DNA of 64,000 bases from Planctomycetota bacterium (GTDB lineage Bacteria > Planctomycetota > MHYJ01 > WSZJ01): NCBI GenBank assembly GCA_009773755.1, contig WSZJ01000030.1, forward strand, positions 7,955 through 71,954, read 5' to 3'. Below, piece by piece: positions 34,840-62,114 of this stretch (positions within the stretch are counted from its first letter, which is position 1; each line of letters begins with the position of its first letter). Both the position numbers and the translations under genes were made by a program. The notes beneath the pieces are model-generated. The model worked only from the letters and a program-made list of their open reading frames with translations. It made no database searches and was not told the DNA's origin.

Positions 34840-34979
34840 GGGGGCTCCGAGAAGTGTGTTGCTCGAAGTCACTACGAAATCAAGGGAGACGTTCTTCCAG
34901 TCAGTGTAACTGCGCAGTCAGGGAGAGGGTCGTCTTCTCTTGCATACAAGTTACGATATTCGTAATCTATCAACAAATC

Positions 34980-35633: not shown

Positions 35634-36502
35634 TGAAGGACATTCTCTCGGACAGACTGAAGGAGTACGCGCCGGCAAACGCCATCGAACAGGAAAACGC
35701 GCTCGCGGAAATCATGCAGCATTACGTGCTCGCGAGCCTCGCCCGCGCACGCTTCTTTGGCCGGGCGATCTTTCACGAGGGCACATGCCTGCGCATCCTG
35801 TATGGATTGCATCGCTTTTCCGAGGATCTGGATTTCGTCCTGAAGGATGCAGACCCTGCGTTTGACTGGAAATCCTGCGTGGACCGCATTCGTCATGATT
35901 GCGCGGCGGAAGGGATCCAACTGGACGTGCAGGGGCGCGCCGGGAAAGAGACCGCCGTTCGAAAGGTTTTCCTCAAAACGGATTCGATCGGGCAGATCCT
36001 CAACCTGGAGTTGCCCTACGCGAGGCATGCCACCCGGAAAATCCGCATCAAGCTGGAAATTGATACCAATCCTCCGGGAGGCGCGACCTTTGAAACGCGG
36101 TTCATCACCTTCCCGATGGCCACCGCCATCACCTGCATGGACCTGCCCTCCGGCTTCGGATCCAAATGTCATGCCCTGCTCTGCAGCGAATACGTCAAGG
36201 GCCGCGACTGGTACGACTTCCTCTGGTACGCGTCCCGGAAAGTGACGCCGAATCTCGACCTGCTGTCGCATGCCCTCGCCCAGCAGGGCCCGTGGGCCGG
36301 GCAACAGATCGCTGTCACGACAGCCTGGTTTCTCAAAACGCTGCGATCCCGAATCATGGAAATCGACTGGCGGGTCGCCGCGCAGGACGTCGCACGCTTT
36401 ATCATGACGCGCGAACAGGAGGGGCTGCGTGTGTGGTCCGCCCCGCTGTTTCTCCAGCATCTGGAAGACCTGGCCGGGAAGATGGCGGAAGCCGGGCGAT
36501 GA
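35630..36502 (+). CDS. abiEii: AbiEii/AbiGii nucleotidyltransferase toxin
   Basis: ATGA overlap with abiEi. EQENALAEIMQHYVLASL...FHEGTCLRILYGLHRFSEDLDF is the DUF1814/AbiEii pattern. Confidence 0.8.
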   Translation: MMKDILSDRLKEYAPANAIEQENALAEIMQHYVLASLARARFFGRAIFHEGTCLRILYGLHRFSEDLDFVLKDADPAFDWKSCVDRIRHDCAAEGIQLDVQGRAGKETAVRKVFLKTDSIGQILNLELPYARHATRKIRIKLEIDTNPPGGATFETRFITFPMATAITCMDLPSGFGSKCHALLCSEYVKGRDWYDFLWYASRKVTPNLDLLSHALAQQGPWAGQQIAVTTAWFLKTLRSRIMEIDWRVAAQDVARFIMTREQEGLRVWSAPLFLQHLEDLAGKMAEAGR

Positions 36503-46132: not shown

Positions 46133-46487
46133 GTAGACTCGCCTCGATCGAGGGGTGTTCGACCTTGATCGCCGTCCCACACATAAGGTTCACAATCATA
46201 CAGAGGTACTTCAACTCTGCCGTGGAGAGTTCAGTTGTCTGAAACACCGTTCCTTGCCTGAGCCCAAGAGCCGCGAGAGCTGCGCCTCCAGGAACCAAGC
46301 GGGGGCGGGATCGTTGTCGAGAGAGAAGCGCGCCGGTTCCGGATCGCGTTCGGAAAAAGGCGGACGGCTTTGAGTCCACACCCGGTAGGGCGAGCCGGTC
46401 TGAATTCGGACTAGGACGATGCTGGGCGCCACAGGAACTCAGCGCATGTCCTACTCACGCAGGAGTGATTGCATTCTGACCGGGCTT

Positions 46488-48794
46488 TCATTCCCGGCAC
46501 GCCCAAGGATCGCCGTAGAAACAGTACGCCGCGTAGGTGTCTTGGAGTGGGTTCTTCTCGTCGTACGCGCGGGCTCGAATCCCCCGGAGAATTTCTGCGA
46601 ATGGCAGCGCGGGATTCTTAAGCGCCTCCTCGTAGAACTCTTTCGCAATGAGATGGGCAATATCGTCCTCCACGCTCCAGAGTGCCGCGATCACCCCACC
46701 GGCCCGCTGCTTGACGAGTGCCTGGACGAGGCCTCCCACGCCGCTCAGCGCCGGAGCCGGCCGCCCTACCTCGCAGGCGTTGAGCACCACCAACGTCGGC
46801 GCTCTGGAAAACGCAGATCTGAACTCTGGGCAGCCCCTCACCTTGGTCGATGTCAGCGTCTGCAATTGTTCCAGGTCCAGACTCTGTCCGCCCGCCGCCG
46901 ATCCGTGGCCGACAAAATGAACCAGGTTGCACTTGCTCTCGGTCAACGACTTTGTAATGGACTCCATCTCCGCCGGATTGGCCTGCCGGCCAGGTACTTT
47001 TCCGAGCACGAAGACGGCCTCTTCCTTCGATGTTGGAAGATCCCGCGTGTCCCCGTAACTCGGAGCGATCACGAGGCTCCGGTCAATTGCAAACCGTTGA
47101 GGGCCGGAGGTGTTGTCGGCCGGCACCCATCGGCCGATCACGAACTCTACGCCGAGCGGCTGCCGCTCCTGGTCCCCACGATTCGGGATCATTAGCTCCC
47201 AGGGAATGAAGGGCTCATCGGTAACGATTGCGATCGTCCGGGGGAGCTTGTTCGCATCGACCAGTTGCCAGAACAACTTACGGAATTGCTTGGGCGAAGC
47301 ATCAAATAAATTTAGACCAGCGCCCCTAAGCTCGCCGAGCCTGCCCGCGGCGTCGTTGTTCGGATCCACGAACTGCTTCATGTAATCGCGGACGATCCGC
47401 TCTGCTCTGCCCTTTAGCTTCCATGTGTGGCACTTGTTCAGCAGGTTTGACTTGATCAACGAAGTCCGCAGAAAGCAGCAAAAATCGGTCTCCTCGCCCT
47501 CCGGAACCGCATGGATCTGCACGATCAGGTCGGCAGGTTTCGCCGTCGGATCTACTGCAATAGTCCCCGGAAGGGGTGACGGAGGCACCTCCTTCCCCTG
47601 ACTGGAACTGATAGCGATCGGGACGGTGATCCGAACCTCCCCCGCTGGCCTTCCCCGATGAAGGAACAGCACCGAAATCCCGCCATGATCGACGCGCGTT
47701 GGATCCGGAAAGCGGTTTCGAAGTTCGGCCTCGCACCGGACCCGCACCCGGAAATCGATTCGCTCCGTCCGCTCTCGGGACACTTCCATTGGGAACGGTT
47801 GGCTGTGGTCTCCGACTGGCTCGAAGTGATCACTGACTAACAGTTCCGCTACCAGGTCGATCCGCTTGATTCCCGGAGGCACCTCGACGTCGATCGGAGT
47901 GACATCCTCGCCCTTCCGCGCGGGCTTTGTGTCGGCCCAGATTGTGAGCGTGAATTCCATCGCGGGTTTCACAGGCGCCTTGGGTGAGAGTTCGACGTGC
48001 GGAGTCCGGTGGATGGTGCGCGGGACCACCGGCCGACGAGGGGTTCCTTCAACCGGTTGCGTTCGCCTCGGCAAGAAGGGCCTTGGTTTGGCTGAATGCG
48101 GAGGGAGATCTTGACCCCGCTGCAAGGGCTGGAAGTCGACAAAGGCTTCAAGCCCCGCATCGTCCCACTGCTCCGATAACTTGCGCAATGCCTCCTGGAG
48201 CGGACCCACAACCGGGGCTTCGAGCTGTGACTTGTAGTCCGCCCAAGCTTCAAATAATTCGCTTTGCCCTGTCAGTAGGCTCAAGTCCCCTCGCAAGATT
48301 GCCGCCCCCGAAACTGGCGCTTGCAATTTGAAGAGTTGTCCGGCCGTGGCTTCCAACACTCTGGTGATCTTCCTCCCTGAAGCCGGTTCGTCCCCGCGAT
48401 CCTTCAAGGCAAGTGCTTCGATGAGACCACGGTCGGTTTCGACGCTCCCCATTACCACCTCATGCGGCTCGACGATGCGCGCCATTGTAGGGGACTTCAG
48501 TCCGAAATACAGATGCAGGTCCTTCTGCCTCCGTGCAAGGAGCCAGCGGAGTTGCATCAATCGGCCTGCATCCACCCGGCCCAGCTTGGCATTTTTTTCC
48601 AACGCCTCGAGGACCCTGATCCTGGAACGCAAGTCAAGCTCCCAGAGCGTGCCGAGTGCGGCGCGGATCGGCTTCGCGATTGGGTTGCCAACTCTATGGA
48701 AGGAGCTCAAGAGGGATCGGGCTTGGAATACACGGCCGCTGGCCACGAGCTGCGCCGCCTTGATCACGTCAGTTCGCTGAGGATTGGGAGGCAT
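46488..48794 (-). CDS. CHAT-domain (caspase-like) protease with long N-terminal helical and beta-rich regions
   Basis: Start ATG 48794, 4 nt after the hydrolase stop. The C-terminal CHAT pattern has catalytic His in LVHFVGHGS and Cys in LVVLNACEVG, ending ...YCFYGDPW. Confidence 0.8.
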   Translation of the reverse strand: MPPNPQRTDVIKAAQLVASGRVFQARSLLSSFHRVGNPIAKPIRAALGTLWELDLRSRIRVLEALEKNAKLGRVDAGRLMQLRWLLARRQKDLHLYFGLKSPTMARIVEPHEVVMGSVETDRGLIEALALKDRGDEPASGRKITRVLEATAGQLFKLQAPVSGAAILRGDLSLLTGQSELFEAWADYKSQLEAPVVGPLQEALRKLSEQWDDAGLEAFVDFQPLQRGQDLPPHSAKPRPFLPRRTQPVEGTPRRPVVPRTIHRTPHVELSPKAPVKPAMEFTLTIWADTKPARKGEDVTPIDVEVPPGIKRIDLVAELLVSDHFEPVGDHSQPFPMEVSRERTERIDFRVRVRCEAELRNRFPDPTRVDHGGISVLFLHRGRPAGEVRITVPIAISSSQGKEVPPSPLPGTIAVDPTAKPADLIVQIHAVPEGEETDFCCFLRTSLIKSNLLNKCHTWKLKGRAERIVRDYMKQFVDPNNDAAGRLGELRGAGLNLFDASPKQFRKLFWQLVDANKLPRTIAIVTDEPFIPWELMIPNRGDQERQPLGVEFVIGRWVPADNTSGPQRFAIDRSLVIAPSYGDTRDLPTSKEEAVFVLGKVPGRQANPAEMESITKSLTESKCNLVHFVGHGSAAGGQSLDLEQLQTLTSTKVRGCPEFRSAFSRAPTLVVLNACEVGRPAPALSGVGGLVQALVKQRAGGVIAALWSVEDDIAHLIAKEFYEEALKNPALPFAEILRGIRARAYDEKNPLQDTYAAYCFYGDPWACRE

Positions 48795-48798
48795 CGGG

Positions 48799-50064
48799 CT
48801 AGCGCAGCATCTTTCGGATGAAGCTGAGAGTCTCTGGCTGCTCAAAGTAGTTGGTGTGATGCACACGATCGGTACTCTTGAAATCGAAGATCTGGTCGTC
48901 GCCGAGCCTCGCCGTATCCGCAAGCTCAATCATCGACTCGCTGTCGACCACCAGGTCGTTTTCGCCGTCGAAGACGAAACTGGCAGCGAGATCCTTCAAT
49001 CGACCGCCAGGTCGCCGGAAGTACCTCCAGAACTTCCACCCTGGCTTTTCGCTTTCGAAATTGGAGCGCACCGCGAAGTAGCGGCTCCGCCACTCGACAG
49101 CCGCGCTTCGAAGGCTCAACAGCTCAGAAGCGTTGCCCACACGGCTCTGCGCCGCCATCCCAGGGAGGAGAGCGATGGCAGCATCGATGGCCGGAGTTTT
49201 TGAGGCGATCTTTGTAACGGACGAAATTATGCGGAACACTCCGGTGAGGACTGTCAGAAATGGAAGGCCAGCGCTGGCCGCACCTAGGACGTTCGCGATG
49301 TTGGAGAGGAGGCTCAGGCTGTGTTTGATGTTGGGTGGAGAAGCGAGCCCGGTGCCGGCCAATGGCGAACCCACGAACACTGCTCTCCGCCGGTTGGCGG
49401 GCCCCCTGTCGAACGCCTCGAGCCACCAGCGGGCGACAAGTCCGCCGCGACTGTGGCAGACGACATCCACCGCGGCCTTCGACTCCCGGAAGTGAAGTGC
49501 GAGTGCCCGAGCATTCAGCATCGGGCTCACCGACAGAGTGGGATGATCGAATGTTATCACCTGATCGTATCGGGTGTTCATCCAATCGAGGAATGATCTC
49601 CCCTCTGGATTCTTTGCGATCCCGGCCAGGATGTTCTCGGTGTTGGAGAATGTGCCGTGGACGAGGAGTAAGATCCTTCCTTCATCGGATGGCCTGTGGT
49701 CCTTGGTCGACTCAAGGTTCCCGTCTTGCCAGCGACGAAGTCCCTGGTTCGGAGTGAGCTTCCTGTCGAGCGACTCGAGCCAATCGGTGACCTGTGAATG
49801 ATCGAGCTTCGCCAGCACTCGTTCCCACACGAGGATTCCTGGAGAAGAAATACCCTGCGCACCGCGGCGCCGAGGACCAGTCGGGACGAACTGCGGAGAG
49901 TCGTCCACTTGAAGGACCCCGTCGTGCTCCACGATCCTCATGGTGAGGGCTCCTTCACTTGCGATGGGCCTGACCGCTCCTCTGCGGCGGGCCGGCTTGG
50001 GGCACGCGCCCAGCTCCTGGGTCAGCTTGTCTAACGCGGCTGACAACGTATCCCCTCCGTTCAT
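48799..50064 (-). CDS. lipase-like alpha/beta hydrolase with ~140-aa N-terminal extension
   Basis: AAGGAGG SD. ILLLVHGTFSN (oxyanion region), VVCHSRGGLVA (nucleophile elbow), FDGENDLVVD and RVHHTNYF (Asp/His candidates). Confidence 0.7.
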   Translation of the reverse strand: MNGGDTLSAALDKLTQELGACPKPARRRGAVRPIASEGALTMRIVEHDGVLQVDDSPQFVPTGPRRRGAQGISSPGILVWERVLAKLDHSQVTDWLESLDRKLTPNQGLRRWQDGNLESTKDHRPSDEGRILLLVHGTFSNTENILAGIAKNPEGRSFLDWMNTRYDQVITFDHPTLSVSPMLNARALALHFRESKAAVDVVCHSRGGLVARWWLEAFDRGPANRRRAVFVGSPLAGTGLASPPNIKHSLSLLSNIANVLGAASAGLPFLTVLTGVFRIISSVTKIASKTPAIDAAIALLPGMAAQSRVGNASELLSLRSAAVEWRSRYFAVRSNFESEKPGWKFWRYFRRPGGRLKDLAASFVFDGENDLVVDSESMIELADTARLGDDQIFDFKSTDRVHHTNYFEQPETLSFIRKMLR

Positions 50065-50156
50065 CGTACTACCTCCTTAACTCTGCTCCGGAGAGTGCTT
50101 CGGGGCCCAAGATCCCATCGAAAGGAGAGGCTCGGATTCTCCCCATGAGGGATGGG

Positions 50157-51374
50157 CTAATCGACGCTCACAATTCCTCCCTGCACCCGCCCGGGTGGCG
50201 GGAATAAATAAAACGCAATCGACCGCCAGCCCACAAAATAGATTGACGTTCCAACGAGCAGTACGAACAAACCCAGGAGCAACCTGACCAGCTTTCGTTC
50301 GAATTTGTCGACACCAAGCTTGGCATCGGCATCGATTCCCCAGCGTTTCGATGTGGCTGTGAGGACGGCAATCAACACCACCATCACTAGGAAGGTTACC
50401 GACAAACCTAGCCACACGTGCGATTGCTTCAGTCCAGCGATCAGTACAACAAGAGCTGATACGACAGTGGACGAAACAAAATAGAATCGAACCAATCGAC
50501 TCTTGGCCAACAAAAACTGTGGCGCGAAACTGGCCACGCCACAAGCAAGTAGAGATGTTGTGACGACAAGGCACTCCGCCATGCGGAAGCCCCAAAGGTC
50601 CGCACGACCAATTATCGCACTCTCTAGGGAGTTAAAGGCGTGCCCTCGCAGGAAGGAAACTGTTTCTCCCGGGTATCCGGCCATCCAGCTAACTCCCACC
50701 GACGTTATTGCGAGCGCAAGAAACACCAAGCCCGAAGAGATCTGGGATTCTGGCTTTTGCATCCCGGCAATAACGTGAGACCACATCAGCGAAGCGACCA
50801 GATAAATCATCAAGAGAGCTAAAAAAGCAGCAATGCGCAATGAGATCTGAACGTCTGCGCTCCAGGCCGCAATTAACCCGAGAGCAGCGCTCATTGAACT
50901 CGTGGCGAAGAACATTAGGTCAAACAAGTCGCTGTGCGTTATCGGCGGGCGCGGTTGTGATGACAAGAGTGTCGCGAAGACTCCATTCGACCCTACTCCC
51001 AACAGCTCTTCCAACTTCTTGCCCGCCTCGGTACAGGATCTATAGAGTTCGCGATTGCGGATTTCCAACCCCCAGAATAGCAACGAGCCGGCGGACACGC
51101 AGAACGGAATTGCCCACTGAACAGCTAGAAGCAGATCTTTCGTCTTGATTGTCGCAAAGGCGACACAGTTCGCGGCTACAAACGTGAAAAAACCAACTAG
51201 AAGTCTGTGCCGCCATCCTAAGTAATGAATGAAGAGATCGACAACCTGAGCGTAGACAGCTTCAGGATTGCCAATTTCCTTCGGTCGACCGGGGGCGTCT
51301 TCCTTCCTCGCGAGGCCGGCATCTGGTCGAACAATGACCTTGAAGGTTCTTTCCGGCGGCTCTCCTCCGGCCAT
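50157..51374 (-). CDS. polytopic membrane protein (about 9 TM segments)
   Basis: GGAGGTG SD. Nine hydrophobic stretches, e.g. LLVGFFTFVAANCVAFATI, LLLAVQWAIPFCVSAGSLLFWGL and HVWLGLSVTFLVMVVLIAVLTA. No family recognised. Confidence 0.7.
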   Translation of the reverse strand: MAGGEPPERTFKVIVRPDAGLARKEDAPGRPKEIGNPEAVYAQVVDLFIHYLGWRHRLLVGFFTFVAANCVAFATIKTKDLLLAVQWAIPFCVSAGSLLFWGLEIRNRELYRSCTEAGKKLEELLGVGSNGVFATLLSSQPRPPITHSDLFDLMFFATSSMSAALGLIAAWSADVQISLRIAAFLALLMIYLVASLMWSHVIAGMQKPESQISSGLVFLALAITSVGVSWMAGYPGETVSFLRGHAFNSLESAIIGRADLWGFRMAECLVVTTSLLACGVASFAPQFLLAKSRLVRFYFVSSTVVSALVVLIAGLKQSHVWLGLSVTFLVMVVLIAVLTATSKRWGIDADAKLGVDKFERKLVRLLLGLFVLLVGTSIYFVGWRSIAFYLFPPPGRVQGGIVSVD

Positions 51375-51568
51375 CGAATCACCTCCGAATCCAATTCCGT
51401 TAGCGTTCCTCGGGCGTCACGCGAGCGACATTGACAATTAGAGTAGAGTATCTCTGGAAGTCTGCTGCAGAAGACTCATTAGTGTTCTTGAGCATCGCCT
51501 CGATAATTCCGAGGTGATGGAGAGATGACACTTTCATCATCATAAATCTGTGCAGCGACTACCTGGGT

Positions 51569-53260
51569 CTACTTCTCTTCCTTCTTCTCCTCGCGACGAG
51601 CAAGCCCCGCCTCGATTTGCTTCTTGATGTACTCCTGAAGCGCTTCCTTCAAACTCGTGTTGAAGGTCTGCGCCGCAGCAGCGGTCTGTTCGACAAGGTG
51701 CTTTGCGTCGCTTGAGTCCTTCTCATTGACTTTGAATTTCACGCCCCAGGTACCCGAGGCAATCTCTCCAACTCGCGTCCATGGCGGCGGGTTCGGCTCA
51801 TTACCTTTGGTGAAGTGATTGCGGAGCGTAGCTTGGTCACTCAGGACGTTTGCCTTCCAAATCGCCTGCGTTGCTTGGGCCGATTTCAATCGCCTTTCGA
51901 TCTCTTCGCTTTCGGTTCGTCTGCCTTCAAAAGCCGCTTGGTATTTCCGCAAATCGCCGAACAGCCTCTTAGCATCTTCTGACGCTTTCGAAAGAGCGTC
52001 GTTTGCCTTTGCGAGCGCCTTCTCGGAGTCCACGATCGGCTGAGATCCTGGTGGGTTGTCCCTCTTTGCGAACTCAAGATCCATTTTGCAGGACGAGACG
52101 TTCTTCTCGGCGGTTCTAAGCGCAGTTCGTGACTCTTTCAAACTCGCCTTCGCAACATCGACTTCGTCTTCCGCAGCCTTCTTCAGAATCTCAACTTCGT
52201 TTTTCAAGACGATCACGGCTCGCACCTCACCTCCGCTCAGCCAGGTTAGCTGATCATCGAAGCGTTTGATAAGTGGAGAGATCAGTTCATCGACCCCCCC
52301 GGGCCTCCGAACAGAACGAAACCATCCTTCGGACTTTGCTCTGCTGGGCAAAAACAGGTCGTTATCAGGAGCGTCTAGGTCGACGTAAGGCAATTTGAAG
52401 GTCGATGTGGTAAGAGTGGGAGTGGACAGTTCTCCGTCCTTGGAAAATGCTTCCAGCACGTCCAATTGCACCTCCAAGGACACCTCTCCATCCGCGCCGA
52501 TCAGGAATTGCCAGAAGAGGATCGGAAATAGCCCGTAACTCCACCACCGAGTGTCGGAGACACGAGCTTTTGTCGCAATCACTCGACCGGCTAGTGGAGC
52601 AATCAAGAACGTGCCTTCGTCCTTCTGACATATACCTAGGATCAACTCTACGGCGGGTCGCTCTTCCGGGCTCTGATTCTCATAGGATTTAGCGGTAGGC
52701 TTGTAAATGTGACCTTCAACTTCGCGAATGAGACGTACTGCACTGTACTTCGGAACCCATTTTGTCTGTTGCATCTCTATGATCGCATAGTTGATGCCGG
52801 GCACCTTGTAACTAAATTCAGCCTCATCCGCCGCCTTGCAAGGAACGTAAATCGTTCGTTCACAGAGAACCCAAAACTCGTTGTCGGCGGCGGATTGGGC
52901 ATACTCGGCCTCGTGCTTTGCGGCCTCTGCTGCTACAGCGCGCTGCATGAGATCCAAGGCGATGCCCGACAGGGCTCCCGCGGCGTCAGATCCGACTTTA
53001 GTGATCAGAGCCGCAGCCGCGGCACTTGATGTCGCTAGAGACTTCTCGTCCTTGCTCCAATTCGCAGGCTCAGCATTGAACGCAGCCCGGTAGCGATCTG
53101 TCAGTCCCATTGCGGCGAGGTCGTCTGGGGTCAGGAAGTCAACGCTGATGCGCTCTCCGCTTGACATGTCGGAGTTCTCGTTCCGCGGAAGGAGGAACTG
53201 GCATCCGACACCCAGCACGCAGTTGGCCAAAGCGAGAACGAAGAGACATCTCCTCGACAT
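51569..53260 (-). CDS. putative lipoprotein with C-terminal coiled-coil region
   Basis: GAGGAG SD. MSRRCLFVLALANCVLGVGC is a signal peptide plus Cys. There is a long Lys/Glu/Ala heptad-like region (KNEVEILKKAAEDEVDVAKASLKESRTALRTAEKN...). No family recognised. Confidence 0.65.
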   Translation of the reverse strand: MSRRCLFVLALANCVLGVGCQFLLPRNENSDMSSGERISVDFLTPDDLAAMGLTDRYRAAFNAEPANWSKDEKSLATSSAAAAALITKVGSDAAGALSGIALDLMQRAVAAEAAKHEAEYAQSAADNEFWVLCERTIYVPCKAADEAEFSYKVPGINYAIIEMQQTKWVPKYSAVRLIREVEGHIYKPTAKSYENQSPEERPAVELILGICQKDEGTFLIAPLAGRVIATKARVSDTRWWSYGLFPILFWQFLIGADGEVSLEVQLDVLEAFSKDGELSTPTLTTSTFKLPYVDLDAPDNDLFLPSRAKSEGWFRSVRRPGGVDELISPLIKRFDDQLTWLSGGEVRAVIVLKNEVEILKKAAEDEVDVAKASLKESRTALRTAEKNVSSCKMDLEFAKRDNPPGSQPIVDSEKALAKANDALSKASEDAKRLFGDLRKYQAAFEGRRTESEEIERRLKSAQATQAIWKANVLSDQATLRNHFTKGNEPNPPPWTRVGEIASGTWGVKFKVNEKDSSDAKHLVEQTAAAAQTFNTSLKEALQEYIKKQIEAGLARREEKKEEK

Positions 53261-54163
53261 GGCACTCTCCTCAATTGGAAATCCGGATCACACGTCGGGG
53301 TTCCCACGTCAGCAAGTCAAAACGGCTCAACCCCTCATCGGCAGTTACTTGAATCTAAGAGACTGATTGCTGATCTCATCAGCCCCCACCTCACCGGACA
53401 CGGCAAATGACTTAACCAACTCTCTTCGGACATCGCCTTTGAGGAATTGCTGGGACTCTCCGTTGGGCGTCTTACTTGACGTGATCTGAGTCGAGGCCTT
53501 GTGGTGGACTGGTAACCAGCTGGTCCTTTGCCGCCGGACGACCGCACAACTCGAGTTGCCAGGTAGATGCTTCGTGTTGGATCTCTCTCAGCGCCACGGA
53601 CGCTGATTTCTGCAGAACGACATCCGCTTCACGAGGGTTTGGAAGGGACGCCCTCGCCGCGAGTTGAGAGGGGTTCTGTTGTGGCACCTGGATTGAGCGC
53701 GGCACCAAGACCAGGTTCGATCCAAGGGAGCAAGTAGCCCCATTTCGCCGACCTCATCTCCACCCCTCCTGACACAACCAGCCAGAAACCTGCGACTCCC
53801 TCCCGGGGAATGTGGCAGAATTTACCGGTCCTGGGCGCGTGTGGTCAAGAGAAATGCACCCCCCATGATGAGAAAAAATGAAACCGGAGTTCAGTCTTGT
53901 ATCAAACTGATGCTTCGTGAGCTGACGGTGGTCGCCGTGCCGGGAACACTCCGGTCGACTTCCTGTCTCCCACGGGCTACACGCGGGATGTGATCATCCG
54001 TCACGACAAGAACGAGCGACGTTGCAGAGATCGAAGGGGAAGATGGACGCGATTCGAGAGAGCTGCCGCAGGTGCAGTCGCTGTCCGAGCGATCCCGTTC
54101 GCTCCGTACACAGCTGAGCCTTCGCACTCTTCAGCTTTGCAGTAGAGCGACCTATCGGGAGTT

Positions 54164-55729
54164 CTAGCTCGACCGGCGAGCGAAGAGCAACTCGTTCACG
54201 GCTTGCAGGAGTTCGCTTGGGTTGAACGGTTTCTGCAGGAATCGAACGTGGTCGCGGTTCAGGACGTCGGGTCCGAGTTCGTCCTTGGGATACCCCGAGA
54301 CGAACAGCACCGGGAGTTCGGGCTGGGTCTGCCACAGTCGCCCGGCAAGTTCGCGGCCGCCCATCGCTGGCATCACGACATCTGAGACGAGGATTTGAAC
54401 TTCCCGAGCGCTCCGCTCAAGTACTTCCAAGGCCGCCTTTCCGTCTCCGGCTTCAAGCACTTCGTAGCCGTCGCGGCGCAGCGCTATCGACACGACGTTG
54501 CGGACCGACGGCTCATCTTCGACGAGCAACACCGTAACACCGCTCGAGGATTGCACCGATTCCGATGGTGGGAGATTCGCGGTCGGACGCGCTACCTCGG
54601 TCGAAGACGGCAGCAGGATCCAAAACACGCTTCCTGCACCCGTCTTGCTTTCGACGCCGATCTGGCCTCCGTTCTGCATTACGATTCCGTGGCACGTTGC
54701 CAAACCGAGGCCGGTTCCCTTGCCTTGCTCTTTCGTGGTGAAGAAGGGCTCGAAGGCGTGCTCGAGCGCCTCAGGGCTCATTCCGGAGCCGGTATCGGCC
54801 ACTTCCACGCGGACATGAGGGCTGGAACGCTCTGACTTCGTTCCTGTCTTCGAGTCTCCGTCGAGCATCACGTTTGCTGTCCGAATCTCGAGCGTTCCGC
54901 CGTTTGGCATGGCGTCGCGAGCGTTCGTGGCGAGGTTCATCAGGATGTCTTCGAGTTGTCCGGGGTCGATTCGCACGCGCGCGAGGCCTGTAGCCAAAAT
55001 CGTTTTCTGCGTGACGCCGGCGCCCAGCTCTCGGCTCAGTGTTTCACGCATGCCCTCGATAGCAGCATTGACATCAACGACTCGTGGCTGCGCGGTCTGT
55101 TTCCGTGCGAATCCCAACAGCTGCCTCACCAACGCGGACGCGCGCAGAGCGGTCTTTCGAATGGCGTCCACTTCCGCTGGAGCGCTTCCGGGTGACCGAC
55201 GGTCCAGCTGGTCCGCGTACCCGAGGATCGCGGTCAGCATGTTGTTGAAGTCGTGAGCAACTCCGCCAGCCAGCCGCGCTACGCTCTCGATTTTCTGCAC
55301 TTTGAGCGCCTGCGCTTCCAAGCGCTTCAGCTCCGTGATGTCCTCGACCATCGCCTGCCACCCTCGGCGTCCGTCCAGCATGATCGGCTCAAGGCTCAAC
55401 CTGGTGAGGTAGTGCGAACCGTCCTTCCTCTTGAAGCGAACCTCGTGCTGTCTCAGGAACCCTTGCTTCCGCGCGAGAGCCAGCGCCCGGTCTCGATCCT
55501 CCGAGAATGCGTACAGCGCCGCGACGTTGCCGATTCGTTCGACTTCTTCGCGCGTGTACCCGCCGGGGCGCATCATCGCCTCGTTGAAGGCCAGCAGCGC
55601 TCCTCGCTCGTCTGCTACGCCCAGCCCGACGGGCGAGCTCTCGAACAAGGTCCTGTAACGCGCCTCGCTCTCACGCAGGGCCATCTCCGCGAGCGAGTTG
55701 CCTTCGCTTGGTGGCAACGAGTTGGTCAT
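54164..55729 (-). CDS. PAS sensor hybrid histidine kinase (PAS-HisKA-HATPase-REC)
   Basis: PAS region YRTLFESSPVGLGV. H-box ARLAGGVAHDFNNMLTAILGY. NLATNARDAM...DTGSGM...GTGLGLATCHG. C-terminal REC VLLVEDEP...ILVSDVVMPAMGG...LQKPF. Confidence 0.85.
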   Translation of the reverse strand: MTNSLPPSEGNSLAEMALRESEARYRTLFESSPVGLGVADERGALLAFNEAMMRPGGYTREEVERIGNVAALYAFSEDRDRALALARKQGFLRQHEVRFKRKDGSHYLTRLSLEPIMLDGRRGWQAMVEDITELKRLEAQALKVQKIESVARLAGGVAHDFNNMLTAILGYADQLDRRSPGSAPAEVDAIRKTALRASALVRQLLGFARKQTAQPRVVDVNAAIEGMRETLSRELGAGVTQKTILATGLARVRIDPGQLEDILMNLATNARDAMPNGGTLEIRTANVMLDGDSKTGTKSERSSPHVRVEVADTGSGMSPEALEHAFEPFFTTKEQGKGTGLGLATCHGIVMQNGGQIGVESKTGAGSVFWILLPSSTEVARPTANLPPSESVQSSSGVTVLLVEDEPSVRNVVSIALRRDGYEVLEAGDGKAALEVLERSAREVQILVSDVVMPAMGGRELAGRLWQTQPELPVLFVSGYPKDELGPDVLNRDHVRFLQKPFNPSELLQAVNELLFARRSS

Positions 55730-56395
55730 GCGAATCGACTGACCAGAATCATCGCCGAAAGCGCGTGCTTGGATCGAAGCATGTTTCTCCTTCAGCCATG
55801 GACGTCGAAGCGCGTGAACCAGGAAGCTTCGCGAGCCGAATCCCGCTCATCGTGTGCCCGTCATTCCCTCTCCCAAGGGGAAGCGAGCTTAACCCGGATT
55901 CTGGCAGGGATGCCCAGCTCCTGATCCGCTACGCTTCGGACGAAGAGAAGCTGACGCCTGGCAGAATCCACATCACTTCTGCGCCAGGCTCGACCTTGAA
56001 CGGCGAGCTTGGATTGGTGGGGCCAGATCCGAGGGAGCGCGTGAAATGCATAAAGCTGGGGCATTTCATGGCTTTTCGGAAAGATGAAATCTTGTGGTCT
56101 CGAACCAATCGGAAGCCGCCTGGCGTGCGAAGGTGCACGCGCCACTTTTTTGTCCAGAGAGCGTCGTTTCCGCTTGACACGAATTTGAAAACTGCGGACT
56201 TTGTGAAGCAGAGTCCGGCGCAAGGGCGAGGCGAGTAGTTTCCAGCTAGTGGCGGCCAGCTTGCGCTTGTCCACTTGGAGCGGCCGTCGTGAGAGTTGCC
56301 ATCTTCATCGACGGAAAGAACTTCCATGCCGGCTGGAAGGACGCAGACCGCACGCCAAGCCTCACGGTCGAGAGTTCGTGTTTCGTACATCAACA

Positions 56396-56467
56396 TGGGC
56401 GATGACGGGATCGAACCGCCGACCCGCTGCGTGTAAAGCAGCCGCTCTGCCGCTGAGCTAATCGCCC
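56396..56467 (-). tRNA. tRNA-Val (anticodon UAC)
   Basis: The reverse complement GGGCGAT-TA-GCTC-AGCGGCA-GAGC-G-GCTGC-TTTACAC-GCAGC-GGGTC-GGCGG-TTCGATC-CCGTC-ATCGCCC-A folds as a 72-nt cloverleaf. The anticodon loop UUUACAC gives UAC. CCA is not encoded. Confidence 0.9.
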
Positions 56468-56551
56468 TTCAAGAGGATGATAGCTGAAGCTTGCCGGAAG
56501 CACCGTGCGAGTATTGTGTAATCGCTTAAATCTCGGTGGTATGATCCGCGC

Positions 56552-56785
56552 ATGGCACCTAAAAAGTCGAAACGCGGCCGCCCGCCGATGAAGCAGGGAC
56601 AGGCCAAGTCCATTCTGATCCAGGTCCGGGTCACGCCGGAAGAAGCGAAGGCGATCGAGGAGCAGGCGACGCAGTCGCACAAGCCGCGCTCCGAGTGGAT
56701 CCGCCGCAAGCTCGTGCAGCCCGGCGAACCGAAGCCGCCGCCGAAACCCGAGGAGCCGAAACCCCAGCCGCCGGCGAACCCATGA
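56552..56785 (+). CDS. ribbon-helix-helix (CopG/MobC-like) small DNA-binding protein with Pro/Lys-rich tail
   Basis: ILIQVRVTPEEAKAIEEQATQSHKPRSEWIRRKL is the beta-strand/helix/helix RHH pattern. Confidence 0.6.
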   Translation: MAPKKSKRGRPPMKQGQAKSILIQVRVTPEEAKAIEEQATQSHKPRSEWIRRKLVQPGEPKPPPKPEEPKPQPPANP

Positions 56786-57390
56786 GCGCCGACCCCGTCT
56801 GGGATGGCGCGCAATACGTCGAGCGGTGGGCAGGGGAAGTCAGAGTCAACCTGCTGCGGATCGTCGCGCTCGCGGCGTTTTATGGCTGGCACCTCTTCAA
56901 TTACCTGAACAAGGCGCCGGACCTCACGCCGCAGATCCATTTTGCGATCACGGCGGCCTGCCTCGTCTGGGGTCTCTCCGCGCTGGCGGTTCACCTCGCG
57001 CTCAACCGGCGGTATTGTCCTCCCGCGCTCCGGTACGGCGCGATCGCGATGGACGCGCTGATGGCGACGACCGTGCTGCTGGTGGCCGACGGGCCGAAGA
57101 GCCCGCTCGTCGTCGTTTACTTCCTCGTCGTCGCGAGCGCCGCCCTGCGCCTCGACCTCAAGGCCGTCTGGGTCGCGGTGCTCGCGGCCGTCCTCGGCTA
57201 CGCCACGCTCTGCGGCCAGGCGAAATGGCGCCGCCCGGAGATGAACGTCCCGCGCCGCGCGCAGGTCACCGTCGCCCTCGCCCTCGGCTGCGCCGGGCTC
57301 GTCGCCGGGCAGATGGTGCGGCAGGCGAAGCGGCTCGCGCGCGATTACGGCGAGAGGCTGACGGCGAAGGACGAAGAGGCAAAAGCGTGA
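56782..57390 (+). CDS. membrane protein (4-5 TM)
   Basis: ATGA overlap with the previous gene. Hydrophobic segments include LLRIVALAAFYGWHLF, ITAACLVWGLSALAVHLAL and AIAMDALMATTVLLVA. Confidence 0.6.
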   Translation: MSADPVWDGAQYVERWAGEVRVNLLRIVALAAFYGWHLFNYLNKAPDLTPQIHFAITAACLVWGLSALAVHLALNRRYCPPALRYGAIAMDALMATTVLLVADGPKSPLVVVYFLVVASAALRLDLKAVWVAVLAAVLGYATLCGQAKWRRPEMNVPRRAQVTVALALGCAGLVAGQMVRQAKRLARDYGERLTAKDEEAKA

Positions 57391-57836
57391 GCCACGTCCG
57401 TTGCCCGTGCTGCCGAACCGTCGCAGAAGCGACGTTCCGCTTCTGCTACGTCTGCGGTACTGAGTTCGCGACGGGCGGCCGTCTCAACGCGGCGGCGCCG
57501 CCGCTGGCTGCTCAGCAGGCGCGTACGGACTCTCGATCGTCCTCCGTGGCCATCTCCGTTCTCGGGGCGCTCGGCGCGGTTGGGGCGCTTCACGTCGTCC
57601 TCGTGCTCCAGATCCCGATGGTCCAGAAGCTCCTTCTGCTGGCGCTCGTCGGCGGGTTCGCCGCTTTCGGGTTCACCGCAGCGTTCAAGCGGGGAAGCGA
57701 GCACGCCGCTCTGGGCCGAGCGGTCCTCAGAGGATTCGCGGCGCTCGCGTGGGTGTTCCTGATCGGGTTTGTCGTCATCGTCGGCATCGTGATCTACCTC
57801 TTCATCCTCTGCGCCCAGCACGTCGGCAAGTTCTGA
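57387..57836 (+). CDS. zinc-ribbon membrane protein
   Basis: GTGA overlap. N-terminal CPCC...FCYVCG zinc ribbon, then 3 TM segments. Taken from the tail of ORF 56826..57836. Confidence 0.55.
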   Translation: MSHVRCPCCRTVAEATFRFCYVCGTEFATGGRLNAAAPPLAAQQARTDSRSSSVAISVLGALGAVGALHVVLVLQIPMVQKLLLLALVGGFAAFGFTAAFKRGSEHAALGRAVLRGFAALAWVFLIGFVVIVGIVIYLFILCAQHVGKF

Positions 57837-58276
57837 TGGGGCAATTCCGCTGCCTTAACTGCCGGACGGTGCCGCTCGAGGGACACCGCTTCTGTTACGT
57901 CTGCGGCGCCTCGTTTCCGGGCCCGGTCCCGGCGGCAGCTCTGCGCCCGGAGGTGGAGGTCGAAGGCTCCCTCGACATTCGCAGGACCGGAGTCACGATC
58001 GCAGGCCTGACCGGGCTGATTCTGCTCGGGGTCGCGAAGTCTCTCGCTTCCGATTCGAAAAGTTCGTGGCCGCTTGCGGCGCTCCTTCTGATGGCGGGAT
58101 CGTGCACGCTCGTCTGGGCGCTTCAGCCGCGGGGAGAACGGGCGAGCGCGGGCGGCGTGGCGCTCGACGTGCTGCGCACGGTCATTCTCTACCTGCTGCT
58201 TGCGCTCGCCGTCGGCGGCGGGTTGCTGATGCTGCTGATCGGAACGTGCCATTCGTTTGTCGGCAATACAAGCTAG
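57836..58276 (+). CDS. zinc-ribbon membrane protein (paralog of the previous gene)
   Basis: TGATG overlap. MGQFRCLNCRTVPLEGHRFCYVCGASF zinc ribbon plus 3 TM segments. Confidence 0.55.
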   Translation: MGQFRCLNCRTVPLEGHRFCYVCGASFPGPVPAAALRPEVEVEGSLDIRRTGVTIAGLTGLILLGVAKSLASDSKSSWPLAALLLMAGSCTLVWALQPRGERASAGGVALDVLRTVILYLLLALAVGGGLLMLLIGTCHSFVGNTS

Positions 58277-58288
58277 CATGGGAAATTC

Positions 58289-59692
58289 ATGAGCGCGCTT
58301 CGCGACTACACCTACCTCGGCCTGACGCAGTCGCTCTGCCCGAAGTGCCTCCGCCTCGTGCAGGCGAAGATTGCGGTGCGCGAGGGGCGGGTGTTTTTCC
58401 TCAAGACGTGCCCCCAGCACGGGAAGATCGAGGACTTCGTCTGCTCGGACGTGAACTACTACGACCGGCAGGAATTCTCGCGGCCGTCGCGGAAGCCGCT
58501 GTTCTATGCGACGGAAGCGCAGAAGGGATGCCCGTACGACTGCGGGCTGTGCCCGGAGCACGAGCAGCACACGTGCATCGGCCTGGCGGAGATCACGACG
58601 GCGTGCAATCTCGAGTGCCCGATGTGTTACGCGGTGAGCGGGCCGGGCGGGGTGCACTGGAGCTACGAGACTTACACGGAAGTGGTGGACCGCTTCGTGC
58701 GCGCGGAGGGCTCGCCCGACGTGCTGCAGCTTTCGGGGGGCGAGCCGACGATCCACCCTGAGTTCCTGCGGATGGTGAAGTACGCTTATTCGAAGCCGGT
58801 CCAGGTCCTGATGGTCAACTCGAACGGCATCCGCCTCGCCAACGACCAGCGTCTCGTCGACGGCCTCGCGGAATTCCGCGACCGCCTCGAGATCTACCTC
58901 CAGTTCGACGGGTTCGAGAAGAAAACGTGGGAGACGCTTCGAGGCGAATCCCTCCTCGACGTCAAGATGCGCGCCCTCGACAATCTCGCCGCGCGCGGCA
59001 TCCGCTCGACGCTCGTCTGCACCGTCCAGCACGGCCTGAACATGCACGAGATGGGCGCGATCGTGAAACTCGGGATGGAGCGCGAGTGGGTGCGCGGCGT
59101 CTCGTTCCAGCCCGCGACGTACTCCGGTCGCCACATCAATCCCGCCGACCTCCACAACCGCGCGACGATGCCCGACGTCGTCAAAGGCATCGTCGCCCAG
59201 ACCGGCGGCTGGCTCCGCGAGGACGACTTCATGCCCCTCCCGTGCGCCCACCCGAACTGCCACATGATGTGCTTCATCTGGCGCGGCGCCGGAGGGCCGC
59301 TTCCCGTCGGCCGGCTCGTCGACATCAAAAAAAACCTCGACCTCGTCGCCAACACGATCGTCTACACGCCGCACAAGGCGAAAAACGTCGTCGCGGAGTT
59401 TCTCAAGCGTGAAGCGGCGTGCTGCGCACCGGGCGAGTCCTGAGGTCCCGACGAGGCCCCGGCGGTGCCGGGATTCCTGGAAGCGGCGTTGGCGGAGAAG
59501 CTGACCGGCAAGGAAGTGTTCCGGATCACGCTGACGGCGTTTCTCGACAAGCACATCTTCGACGTGCGGCGCGTGATGAAGTGCTGCACGGCGATGCTGC
59601 TGCCGACGGGGCACACGGTGCCGTTCTGCGCGTACAACACCTTGTACCGGGACGGGACGGTGCCGCTGCCGCCGATTGCGGGAGCCCGTTGA
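58289..59692 (+). CDS. radical SAM enzyme (MJ0619/Tes-like architecture) interrupted by one in-frame TGA at 59441-59443
   Basis: CPKC...CPQHG ribbon, CPYDCGLCPEHEQHTC, the radical SAM CNLECPMCYA, and SGGEPT. ORF 59465..59692 is in the same frame and supplies the expected C-terminal KCC...PFCAYN motif. The junction reads ACCAPGES-TGA-GPDEAPAVPGFLE. Confidence 0.65.
59454..59478 (+). promoter_or_regulatory. candidate bacterial SECIS hairpin
   Basis: CCCGGC-GGU-GCCGGG perfect 6-bp stem (59458-59472), extendable by AGG/CCU. The apical GGU loop starts 20 nt after the UGA. Confidence 0.4.
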
Positions 59693-59693
59693 A

Positions 59694-60530
59694 ATGTCGC
59701 GGCCGTACTGGGCGGACGATCCGATGCGCCGAGGCATCTGGGCGTTGTTTGCGGTCGGCCTTTTCTTACTGACGTTCGGAGCGATCGCATTCTTCACCTG
59801 GGCGCGGATGCCCGACTTGGACGATCCACAAGGCCGCACGCGAGTTTCGAATGCGCAGATGTACGCCGTCTTCCAGATCCTCGCGCTTCTCACGGCGATC
59901 GCCCTTCGCCCGAAATCGCTGCTTCCCTGGCGCCGGCGCCTTGCGCTCTACGCGGGGGCGATTGCGGGGGCCGGGATCGGGTCGAAGCTGCCGTTTGCGA
60001 TCACGGGGAGCGAGCCGTTCTGGGCGGCGGGGGCGTGGTTTACGGACGGGAAGACGATTCTCGCGGGGATGGCGGGCGGGTACATCGGCGTCGAGATCGC
60101 GAAGCTCGTCGCGGGTATCCGGGAGAAGACCGGGGACGGCTTCGCGGTGCCGCTGGCCGCGGCTGTGGCGGTGGGGAGGTGGGGGTGCTGGTTCAACGGG
60201 TGCTGCTCGGCGCCAAACGTCCCGGTGCCGATCATCGAGAGTGCGTTCCACGCGACGATGGCCTTCATACTCTGGCGCCTGCAGCGGATTGACGCGCTGC
60301 GTCATCAGCGCCTGAAGTTGTACCTTATTTCCTACTGTATTTTCCGCTTCGGCATCGAATTCGTCCGCACCGAGCCTCGGATCGCGTGGGGCCTCACGGC
60401 GTACCAGTTCGGCGCGGCGGCGTTCGCGGCGGCGCTGGCGGTGCACTGGGTCGTGGACTCCAGGCTCTACGGAAGCGTGGAGACACGGGCAACGGCCCCG
60501 TGGCTGGGCGAAAAACTGCCGGAACGCTGA
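59694..60530 (+). CDS. Lgt-family (prolipoprotein diacylglyceryl transferase-like) membrane protein
   Basis: ATG 59694, 1 nt after the upstream stop. Multi-TM. AVGRWGCWFNGCC resembles the Lgt GR.GN/C..NGE/C motif. YCIFRFGIEFVR resembles the Lgt Y...RF..EF.R motif. Confidence 0.6.
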   Translation: MSRPYWADDPMRRGIWALFAVGLFLLTFGAIAFFTWARMPDLDDPQGRTRVSNAQMYAVFQILALLTAIALRPKSLLPWRRRLALYAGAIAGAGIGSKLPFAITGSEPFWAAGAWFTDGKTILAGMAGGYIGVEIAKLVAGIREKTGDGFAVPLAAAVAVGRWGCWFNGCCSAPNVPVPIIESAFHATMAFILWRLQRIDALRHQRLKLYLISYCIFRFGIEFVRTEPRIAWGLTAYQFGAAAFAAALAVHWVVDSRLYGSVETRATAPWLGEKLPER

Positions 60531-60645
60531 AAGGCGCGGAAAGGGCCGGAAAGGCACCGCCCGCCGCTCACCTCCTGACTCACTCCCCACTCCGCACTGC
60601 TCGCTACTCAATCCGCGATACTCAACACTCGATTCTCCGGATTCG

Positions 60646-61686
60646 TTAGTAGACCGGTCCTGCACTCTCAACCTTCCCATCCTTCGCAATCTTTACCAGC
60701 CGGCAAGCCGACGTCACCCCCCAGAACCCTCCATCCGCCGCTGTCGTAAATCCAGCCCAATACTCCGGCCACCCCGGCAGCCGGTCGACTTCAAACTTCA
60801 CCGCCGTCCCTCCATCCAGCGTGCAGATCGCCCCCGACCTCAACCCGCCTCCGATCGCCAGCTTCCCGTCCGCCGACCAGCCGCGCCCGTAGTTGTAGCT
60901 CGTCGTCACCTCGAAAATCGTGACTTCCCCCTTCGGCGTGATCCGCGCGCACACGTCGTCGTACGGCATGATCCACGCATACTCCCCGGCCGACATCACG
61001 CCCACTCTCCCTCGCGCCGTGAAAAACGTCTTCGCTTCCGCCAGCGGCTTCCCGGTCGGCGCCTCGAACCACTTCACGCTCGCCGACAGCGCGTCGTTCT
61101 TCTGGATCCACTCCTTCCGCGCCGCCCCCTTCAGCTCTTTCGGGATCGCGCTGTAGTCCGCCTTCGGTTCCGCCTTGTCCTCCTCCGGCTCCATCACCAC
61201 CACCGCTTTCGTCCCCGCCGCGTCGATTCCCGCCGAGCCGATCCTTCCTTTGATCGCCGTCTTTCCCTTCTCGACGCCGTCCGTCATCGACAGGAAGCGG
61301 ATCCCGTTTTCCTTCCCGGAGATCGCCAGGCAGAGGTCTGCCGTCGGCGCGAAGGCGCAGTCGCCCGCGTCCGCGACCTTCTGGACTTCTTTCCACGTTG
61401 AGGTATCGAAGAAGTGGAGAACCTCGTCGTCGTCCTCGAGGCACAGCCGTGTTCCGTCTTTGGAGAACGCGAGCGCGCCGACGCGCGCCTGGATCCAGAT
61501 CCGCTGCTTCACTTCGCGCGTCGCGGCGTCGAGCACATACAGCACGCGGTTCTCGCCGCCGCAGACGACGGTTTTCCCGTCCGGGCTTGCGGCCACGGCG
61601 CCGAGACCGCCCCATTCAGGGTCGCGGGCGGCCGAAATCGAAGCGCAGACAACGAGCAGGGCGAAGGCGGCGAGGGCGCGCGGCAT
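60646..61686 (-). CDS. secreted beta-propeller (WD40-like) repeat protein
   Basis: Internal ATG 61686. Signal peptide MPRALAAFALLVVCASISAA. Repeats SPDGKTVVCGGENRVLYVLD / SKDGTRLCLEDDDEVLHFFD. Confidence 0.65.
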   Translation of the reverse strand: MPRALAAFALLVVCASISAARDPEWGGLGAVAASPDGKTVVCGGENRVLYVLDAATREVKQRIWIQARVGALAFSKDGTRLCLEDDDEVLHFFDTSTWKEVQKVADAGDCAFAPTADLCLAISGKENGIRFLSMTDGVEKGKTAIKGRIGSAGIDAAGTKAVVVMEPEEDKAEPKADYSAIPKELKGAARKEWIQKNDALSASVKWFEAPTGKPLAEAKTFFTARGRVGVMSAGEYAWIMPYDDVCARITPKGEVTIFEVTTSYNYGRGWSADGKLAIGGGLRSGAICTLDGGTAVKFEVDRLPGWPEYWAGFTTAADGGFWGVTSACRLVKIAKDGKVESAGPVY

Positions 61687-62114
61687 GGGGATCTCCGGGG
61701 AATTGGAAGGCGCGAGGCTATTCCGGGGAGAGCCGGGATGCAAGGGAGGGCGGCTCGCAGGGTGCATGGCCGGTATTGCGGGGCCGCCCGGGAGTCCCCC
61801 TGCGTTCCGCCTCGGCAGCGGGAAACGGCAAAGGCAAAAAGGAGAATTCTCAAGGAAACGACAAGAGCCAAAGGACAAGTCAGGCAGCTTCGTGGATGCC
61901 GCGGATCATGGCGCTCAGCACACGAAGCGCGAACCGATTCGTCCGTTCGCGGATGTCGACTGGCTTGCCGGGAGGCGGCTTTCCGGGCATTTGTTTCTCC
62001 TCTTTGACTTTGGCGTTTGGCTTGGCGTTTCGCCGTTTTGAATTTGCCTTTTCGGGTCGCCCTCGAAGGTTATTGCAATACCGGCCATGCACCCCGGCTC
62101 GCACCACCGATCGA

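Follow-up and report, generated by a model that had tools for sequence, protein, structure and literature searches.

Four co-directional genes, here called A to D, occupy positions 46,488 to 53,260 of a 64,000-nucleotide (nt) stretch of DNA (the window) from a Planctomycetota metagenome-assembled genome (assembly GCA_009773755.1, contig WSZJ01000030.1), and they raise the question of which of them work together and to what end. When the locus was first read from its letters alone (the sequence-only reading hereafter), all four genes were joined in one envelope-linked system, in which the lipoprotein-like A and the membrane protein B sense damage or infection, the CHAT protease D cuts the lipase-like hydrolase C, and the released hydrolase attacks membranes. 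The analysis reported here favours a smaller unit. By analogy with described systems, C and D (FD180_1481 and FD180_1480) would form a module of two genes in which a protease licenses a zymogen, and which serves abortive infection or the suicide of the cell, a reading to which a probability of about 0.6 was assigned.

All four genes were confirmed as minus-strand open reading frames (ORFs) with the boundaries first proposed for them (Table 1). They are separated by gaps of 194 nt (A-B), 92 nt (B-C) and 4 nt (C-D), the last being the 'cccg' between the TAG stop of C and the ATG of D, exactly as short as had been noticed before. The mechanical ORF of D extends further back, to a TTG at 48,929 within C. 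Shine-Dalgarno (SD) sequences had been claimed for all four genes; they are present ahead of A (gaggag), B (ggaggtg) and C (aaggagg), while D lacks one; its translation is presumably coupled to that of C.

C matches the Pfam family DUF7379 (PF24096) at 7e-38, and the lipase-type pattern ascribed to it is borne out: H136-G137, S205 (in CHSRGG), D370/D374 (in NDLVVD) and H403 are kept in 110 of 110 full-length homologues. The AlphaFold2 model of C (mean predicted local distance difference test score, pLDDT, of 78.6; predicted template modelling score, pTM, of 0.82) consists of a canonical alpha/beta-hydrolase core from about amino acid (aa) 108, to which a helical lid and, at the N-terminus, an additional beta/alpha region are joined, and by hydropathy and conservation the lid contains a conserved hydrophobic stretch (aa 259-283). 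In Foldseek, the best PDB matches for this model were Proteus lipase (6jd9/4hs9), esterases and thioesterases, and the sequence profile of C matches the putative lipase 7x2p (3e-6). No signal peptide could be recognized in C or D by sequence and hydropathy. The family is large, with at least 1491 homologous proteins at E <= 1e-3 and at least 551 loci confirmed by a pattern scan over one genome per GTDB species. Eighty of these loci, from Planctomycetota, Acidobacteriota, Pseudomonadota, Verrucomicrobiota and Gemmatimonadota, were retrieved with 10-kb flanks.

Conservation in the C family spans the full length of the protein, including the N-terminal extension, the length of which is kept across the family and which carries RR-G motifs. 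In the first motif of C, R26 is conserved in 102/110 and R27 in 84/110 homologues; in the second, R67 is conserved in 105/110, and 102/110 have G, S or A directly after it. Both motifs fall in stretches with a pLDDT below 50 (aa 28-32 and aa 65-72), the sole low-confidence loops of the N-terminal part. A Tat signal was rejected as an explanation of the RRRG sequences, judged by sequence and hydropathy, as no hydrophobic h-region follows the motif.

D matches Pfam CHAT at 1.6e-14 (aa 520-749) and, more weakly, Peptidase_C25 (1.2e-5), the family of the Arg-specific gingipains; the latter match was counted toward cleavage after Arg. The catalytic dyad, described as intact in the sequence-only reading, holds up among the non-gap family members, with H630 (VHFVGHG) in 52/52 and C674 (LNACEVG) in 53/54. 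The conserved core of the protein is made up of an unassigned beta-rich middle region and the CHAT domain, and the variable aa 1-256 in front of it may serve in sensing or autoinhibition. For aa 1-519 there was no match in Pfam, PADLOC or NCBIfam, nor did D match any of the PADLOC models. A direct homologue search with D returned 2 proteins from a saturated candidate list; its relatives were taken from a metagenome pattern scan, in which the D-family alignment yielded 79 loci.

Six independent loci show a C-like gene with a D-like one behind it, namely L001 (Azotimanducaceae), L081 and L082/L083 (JGI and Logan contigs), L085 and L086, and neither A nor B occurs at any of these. The junction between the two genes again measures 3-4 nt in L081 and L083, and the flanks of the C-D loci are all different. 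The closest C relatives with usable contigs (P0003 with 69% and P0005 with 61% identity) are both followed by a D-like CHAT gene without A or B, the one pair among metabolic genes and the other beside a type I restriction-modification (R-M) system; identity in the closest C-D pairs is 54-69%. A tblastn search with D in the 80 C-family genome loci hit only L001, and among the D-family loci a C-type hydrolase lies upstream only in L085 and L086, besides L081-83 and L001. Searching plasmids by tblastn brought up the C-type domain inside two larger proteins. One of these is a DUF7379 (7.5e-42) and CHAT (2.8e-53) fusion of 966 aa from Ruegeria pomeroyi (WP_051420469; megaplasmid, L163:5398-8298), followed by a SIR2/PtuA-like ATPase gene; the other is a Peptidase_C14 and DUF7379 fusion of 1154 aa from Anabaena sp. 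90 (WP_015081610; pANA01, L164:3409-6873), followed by a TPR-CHAT gene. Neither all-against-all neighbour clustering nor a Pfam census of 128 neighbours revealed a third conserved neighbour family, the commonest extra families in the census being CHAT (6), Sigma70_r4_2 (4) and Metallophos (4). The recurring adjacency, the short junction shared with L081 and L083 and the domain fusions elsewhere support a functional link between the hydrolase C and the CHAT protease D.

Both families also occur with other partners. In at least 60 of the 72 loci that extend far enough upstream to show a neighbour, the DUF7379 hydrolase gene directly adjoins, in the same orientation, the gene of an undescribed protein of about 773 aa (among L002-L080; for example L006:7620-9941, plus strand). 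Its N-terminal half is weakly CHAT-like, with a conserved His228 and with Ser292 at the position of the CHAT Cys, and its C-terminal half is transglutaminase-like, with Cys625 (44/44) and His651 (43/44); Pfam matches of this protein are marginal only. The D-type CHATs are mostly accompanied by a partner of about 476 aa, seen in 40 of the 50 loci with enough sequence upstream (among L087-L162; for example L092:385-1809, plus strand; Agrobacterium WP_080830755 is a further instance). This partner, unrelated to C, consists of an N-terminal extension of about 195 aa with four conserved (D/E)RRG motifs and a calcineurin-like metallophosphoesterase domain. On Agrobacterium Ti plasmids the corresponding genes, annotated as 'metallophosphoesterase' and 'CHAT domain-containing protein', overlap by 4 nt (the former at L165:4220-5575, plus strand). 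The pair in L165 (pTiCFBP5877, record 48343-61803) lies in a dense cluster of conflict genes, whose products include HipA, a couple of TIR-domain proteins, two further CHAT proteins and a TIR+caspase pair similar to type IV Thoeris.

In a neighbour-joining tree the hydrolases paired with D-type CHATs form one clade nested among the hydrolases with a 773-aa partner, which points to a single partner swap as the origin of the pairing with D. An adaptor domain common to the N-terminal extensions of C and of the metallophosphoesterase was considered and rejected (hhalign probability 1.7%). Since no domain homology was found between these extensions, the feature shared by the two alternative partners of D is, as far as their sequences tell, a short Arg-Arg-Gly motif and not a fold. 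It is possible, if somewhat doubtful, that most of the DUF7379 superfamily is licensed by the 773-aa partner, a CHAT-like fold (His, with Ser for Cys) joined to a Cys/His transglutaminase-like protease; if true, prodomains with RR|G motifs would let unrelated proteases and effectors swap freely.

Gene anatomy, catalytic residues, conserved pairing and fusions, RR-G motifs, partner swapping and island context are direct observations, and the module reading was adopted because of the adjacency, the fusions, the intact enzymes, the cleavage motifs, a published precedent and the defence context. In the mechanism proposed, C would be made as an inactive cytoplasmic lipase-like zymogen with a 129-aa N-terminal extension. 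D would be activated by a signal, sensed presumably via its variable N-terminal 256 aa and/or the conserved middle region; in some relatives a neighbouring TPR-CHAT protein possibly acts ahead of D. Activated D may then cut C after Arg at R28|G29 and R67|G68, and the double cut would excise about 39 aa and free the active hydrolase, which, with its hydrophobic lid, would destroy an ester substrate, most plausibly a membrane lipid. The cell would be killed or arrested (abortive infection). That CHAT might remove the N-terminal extension of the hydrolase and so free a killer enzyme had already been suggested in the sequence-only reading, and, given the conserved RR(R)-G motifs and the published precedent, it is the best-supported mechanism.

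The statement in the same reading that no described system couples CHAT to a lipase-like enzyme and two envelope proteins is outdated as regards the coupling of a CHAT or caspase-like protease to a lipase-like enzyme. In NTP (nucleoside triphosphate)-dependent conflict systems, the caspase domain is 'additionally always' found with a neighbouring alpha/beta-hydrolase gene (Kaur et al. 2020, PMC7159879, eLife e52696). In Lysobacter capsici, LcCaspase cleaves LcHydrolase at a pair of R|G sites, R73 and R117, which lie 44 aa from each other, and the cleaved LcHydrolase kills E. coli; by HHpred, LcHydrolase is nearest to lipases and oligopeptidases (Evans et al. 2025, PMC12642450, bioRxiv 10.1101/2025.11.14.688446).

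Several points weigh against the module reading of C and D. That D cleaves C, where it cuts, what triggers it, that the product is toxic, what substrate it attacks and that phages are countered in this way are all inferred by analogy. The strict [RK]R[GS] pattern is missing in 14 of the 110 C homologues. No sensor domain is recognisable in D, and the AlphaFold2 model of this protein, made from two sequences only, reached a mean pLDDT of 33. LcHydrolase, compared here by its description, has about 295 aa and is cut inside its core, whereas C is a DUF7379 protein of 421 aa with predicted cut sites in an N-terminal extension. Neither C and D nor their alternative partners, the metallophosphoesterase and the 773-aa protein, are covered by a PADLOC v2 model; PADLOC thus does not already call the system, a check that the sequence-only reading had asked for, and an independent defence call is lacking as well. 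Related loci have mixed surroundings, frequently of housekeeping type (L081 and the census of 128 neighbours), and the enrichment of C-D relatives near defence genes is anecdotal. Viral contigs hold no C relative and a single D relative, which is by itself neutral evidence; on the same counts, a phage-borne origin of C and D was rejected.

The neighbourhood of C and D in the window is defence-island-like, in agreement with the island context first proposed. A low-GC stretch of about 38-56 kb (GC 0.53-0.60 vs 0.645) is bordered on its right edge by tRNA-Val(TAC), and tRNA genes are classical island insertion sites; no integrase turned up in the ORFs that were scanned. Just left of this stretch lies a complete AbiEi/AbiEii pair (abortive infection, type IV toxin-antitoxin), and inside it, besides the two large orphan genes G and E, lies the gene of a TrlF/Ppl-like ATPase, which is convergent with gene E and encodes a probable single-gene defence protein. 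Among the related loci, L082 adjoins a type I R-M system. These settings bear on the strongest rival explanation, in which C and D are a protease-licensed hydrolase outside anti-phage defence, serving programmed cell death (in stress or development), kin discrimination or a controlled remodelling of lipids where the envelope is complex (as in Planctomycetota, Acidobacteriota and Verrucomicrobiota). Many C-D-related loci do lie amid housekeeping genes (L081; neighbour census), the C family occurs chiefly in phyla of soil and water with complex lifestyles, the C/D family is essentially missing from viral contigs, and stress-response roles have been raised for some modules (Evans et al. 2025). 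However, a patchy phylum distribution, partner swapping and fusions are typical of conflict systems, and related pairs are found repeatedly beside AbiE, R-M, TIR, SIR2-ABC and Ppl-like genes. We regard a role outside defence as rather unlikely.

A second rival takes D itself as the effector, a promiscuous caspase-like executioner in the manner of PCaspase or of ThsE from type IV Thoeris. In that case C would not be the substrate of D but either a second effector with an action of its own or an upstream regulator that, for instance, makes or removes a small-molecule signal. Caspase-like proteases without an effector can defend alone (Evans et al. 2025, discussion), and type IV Thoeris uses a caspase-like effector. 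In addition, a TPR-CHAT gene (1125-1140 aa) adjoins C-D in two of the six C-D loci (L001:13115-16492 and L085:451-3873, both on the plus strand), which hints at a protease cascade or at a separate sensor; no TPR-CHAT gene is present in the window. Against D as the effector stand the conservation of RR-G motifs specifically in the N-terminal extensions of both alternative partners of D-type CHATs, the experimental precedent for a hydrolase as substrate (Evans et al. 2025) and the tight translational coupling of C and D, which suggests stoichiometric partners. This explanation is judged quite unlikely.

The inclusion of A and B remains to be considered. A has one N-terminal signal-like hydrophobic segment with Cys14 and Cys20, its lipobox being non-canonical, and B is a polytopic membrane protein with 8 hydropathy segments above cut-off. 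In a homologue search of limited sensitivity A itself was the sole match for A, and no full-length homologue of B was found among 1.84 billion representatives. Residues 38-170 of B (50,865-51,263, minus strand) resemble free-standing proteins of about 145 aa with two transmembrane segments (131 other matches at E <= 1e-3, best 1.8e-13), small proteins for which no Pfam family was significant; the rest of B has no relatives. SLATT and 8xMP were tried as identities of B, and neither was significant. Pfam and PADLOC gave no match for A or B, and NCBIfam none above threshold.

A four-gene system is favoured by the co-directional arrangement with the gaps given above, by the SD sequences of A, B and C, and by the recombination of protease-effector modules with many sensors (Evans et al. 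2025). Also in its favour, no terminator-like site was found in the A-B or B-C gap and one follows D, in a scan at chance level (16 sites observed vs 12.1 expected in the region). The hairpin 3' of D is a weak indication that the transcript ends before gene E. With both promoter and terminator scans at chance level the extent of the operon is unproven, and A and B may be co-transcribed with C and D.

Yet tblastn searches with A, B and other island proteins found none of them in the 80 C-family genome loci, and A and B were absent from all 165 related loci of the C and D families, including every D-homologue locus and the closest C-D pairs. The co-occurrence elsewhere on which the sequence-only reading had staked its four-gene system was thus seen at 0/165 loci, and a third conserved neighbour family was not found. 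The GC content, put at about 50% in that reading, was measured as 0.53-0.54 for A and B (A 0.544), 0.60 for C and D and about 0.645 for the flanking chromosome, and the difference between the two gene pairs suggests a separate acquisition of A and B. Since they are absent from related loci, lack (full-length) homologues and differ in GC from C and D, we conclude from these comparisons that A and B are lineage-specific island cargo and not conserved C-D partners. The envelope-linked system, with A and B sensing damage or infection and signalling to CHAT for activation of the lipase, is accordingly very improbable, and just as remote is a generic C-D module wired through the variable N-terminus of D to A (lipoprotein-like) and B (8-9 transmembrane segments) as a sensor of membrane damage or phage adsorption.

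A small ORF of 47 aa (51,400-51,543, minus strand), proposed as a possible gene between A and B, does exist with an intact ATG-to-stop frame; no support for its status as a gene was found, and with A and B both orphans its conservation is not assessable. Upstream of A, beyond a gap of about 900 nt without a convincing ORF, a hybrid PAS histidine kinase/response regulator is encoded (54,164-55,729, minus strand), CckA-like by NCBIfam at a score far below cut-off. The products of the neighbouring genes G and E were searched by tblastn in 162 C- and D-family loci and found in none.

Table 1. Positions of the genes, domains and motifs discussed, in window coordinates
Feature	Position	Strand	Basis or remarks
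Gene A	51569-53260	minus	563 aa; ORF call
Gene B	50157-51374	minus	405 aa; ORF call
Gene C	48799-50064	minus	421 aa; DUF7379 alpha/beta hydrolase (lipase-like), predicted latent effector (zymogen)
C, N-terminal extension, aa 1-129, predicted prodomain	49678-50064	minus	precedes Pfam domain
C, RRRG motif 1, R26-G29, predicted cut R28|G29	49978-49989	minus	sequence conservation
C, RRRG motif 2, R65-G68, predicted cut R67|G68	49861-49872	minus	sequence conservation
C, H136-G137	49654-49659	minus	invariant 110/110
C, Ser205 (CHSRGG nucleophile elbow)	49450-49452	minus	invariant 110/110
C, helical lid insertion, aa 243-320	49105-49338	minus	AlphaFold2 secondary structure, hydropathy, conservation
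C, D370, within NDLVVD	48943-48960 (NDLVVD)	minus	invariant 110/110
C, H403, within HHTNY	48847-48861 (HHTNY)	minus	invariant 110/110
Gene D	46488-48794	minus	768 aa from ATG; CHAT cysteine protease (caspase-fold, C25-like), predicted activator of C
D, variable N-terminal region, aa 1-256	48027-48794	minus	conservation 0.11-0.24, gaps 21-71%; predicted helical
D, conserved core, aa 257-768	46491-48026	minus	conservation profile, 55 family members
D, CHAT domain, aa 520-749	46548-47237	minus	Pfam
D, catalytic His630	46905-46907	minus	conserved 52/52
D, catalytic Cys674	46773-46775	minus	conserved 53/54
Terminator-like hairpin	46360-46379	minus	109 nt 3' of D, ahead of gene E
Gene E, 506 aa	44660-46180	minus	no Pfam, PADLOC or NCBIfam match
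TrlF-family AAA-like ATPase, 958 aa	41715-44591	plus	NCBIfam 7e-169; Ppl-like C-terminus, PADLOC Ppl 6e-27
Gene G, 959 aa	38551-41430	minus	no Pfam, PADLOC or NCBIfam match
AbiEi/AbiEii pair	34824-35633, 35630-36502	plus	PADLOC AbiEi 2.9e-48, AbiEii 3.3e-88; Pfam AbiEii 4e-26
tRNA-Val(TAC)	56396-56467	minus	right edge of low-GC stretch

The module reading of C and D provides a functional hypothesis for DUF7379, a large Pfam family without annotation, and covers a CHAT family that current defence finders miss, as the lack of a PADLOC v2 model illustrates. With it, the recently established logic of a 'protease-licensed death effector' would reach further families of enzymes and proteases, in phyla that have been little studied. 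The partner exchanges described above amount to a clean natural experiment: one protease family is combined with two unrelated effectors, the lipase-like hydrolase and the metallophosphoesterase, and one effector family with two unrelated protease partners, the sole shared element being the RR|G motif in the N-terminal extension. Because the swapped partners share only this motif, the specificity code of the module is directly testable. The C-D pair opens no new category of system, and the idea of an envelope sensor is not supported.

Among known systems, gasdermin systems consist of an effector gene followed by a protease gene, often of CHAT or caspase-like type, and cleavage frees a membrane-damaging effector, which leads to cell death. 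Bacterial gasdermin-protease systems were reportedly described by Johnson et al. in Science in 2022. C-D resembles them as a two-gene effector-then-protease operon with the predicted removal of an inhibitory segment. It differs from them in that C is an enzyme with an N-terminal or internal inhibitory segment, compared with a pore-former with a C-terminal peptide, and no gasdermin was matched in the Pfam and PADLOC scans.

A CHAT domain acting as a signal-gated protease on a dedicated partner, as predicted for D, is also found in Craspase (type III-E, with the TPR-CHAT protein Csx29) and in the type III-B SAVED-CHAT to PCaspase cascade, the latter said to have been reported by Steens et al. 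in 2024. TPR-CHAT genes flank some of the C-D relatives, and similarity to CHAT and SAVED-CHAT proteins in PDB and PADLOC is weak. Unlike in these systems, the substrate belongs to another class and CRISPR, SAVED and TPR elements are missing from the window: no TPR or SAVED domain was found in D, and no cas genes among the window ORFs scanned.

Evans et al. 2025 (PMC12642450) count a metallophosphoesterase-like enzyme among the predicted protease-associated effectors and refer for it to Krishnan et al. 2020 (NAR). The metallophosphoesterase-CHAT pairs of the D-family loci and the Ti plasmids, which may be the modules meant there, share with C-D the D-type CHAT family, the effector-then-protease order and an RRG-rich N-terminal extension, whereas the effector in the window is a lipase-like hydrolase.

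The closest parallel in gene content is LcHydrolase/LcCaspase. Like this pair, C and D are adjacent genes for an alpha/beta-hydrolase and a caspase-superfamily protease with conserved adjacency, both active sites are intact, and the hydrolase is closest to lipases. Two conserved R|G motifs are present in each hydrolase, 39 aa apart in C and 44 aa apart in LcHydrolase, and the zymogen logic (predicted for C-D) and the defence or conflict settings agree. Proteases of the LcCaspase class are caspases fused to WD40 or STAND sensors, whereas D is CHAT/C25-like with about 500 unassigned N-terminal residues. The difference in length between C and LcHydrolase (421 vs about 295 aa) and in the number of homologues (at least 1491 vs 161 analysed) suggests that the two hydrolases belong to distinct families. 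C and D are judged to be an uncharacterised variant within an already described class of protease-effector modules.

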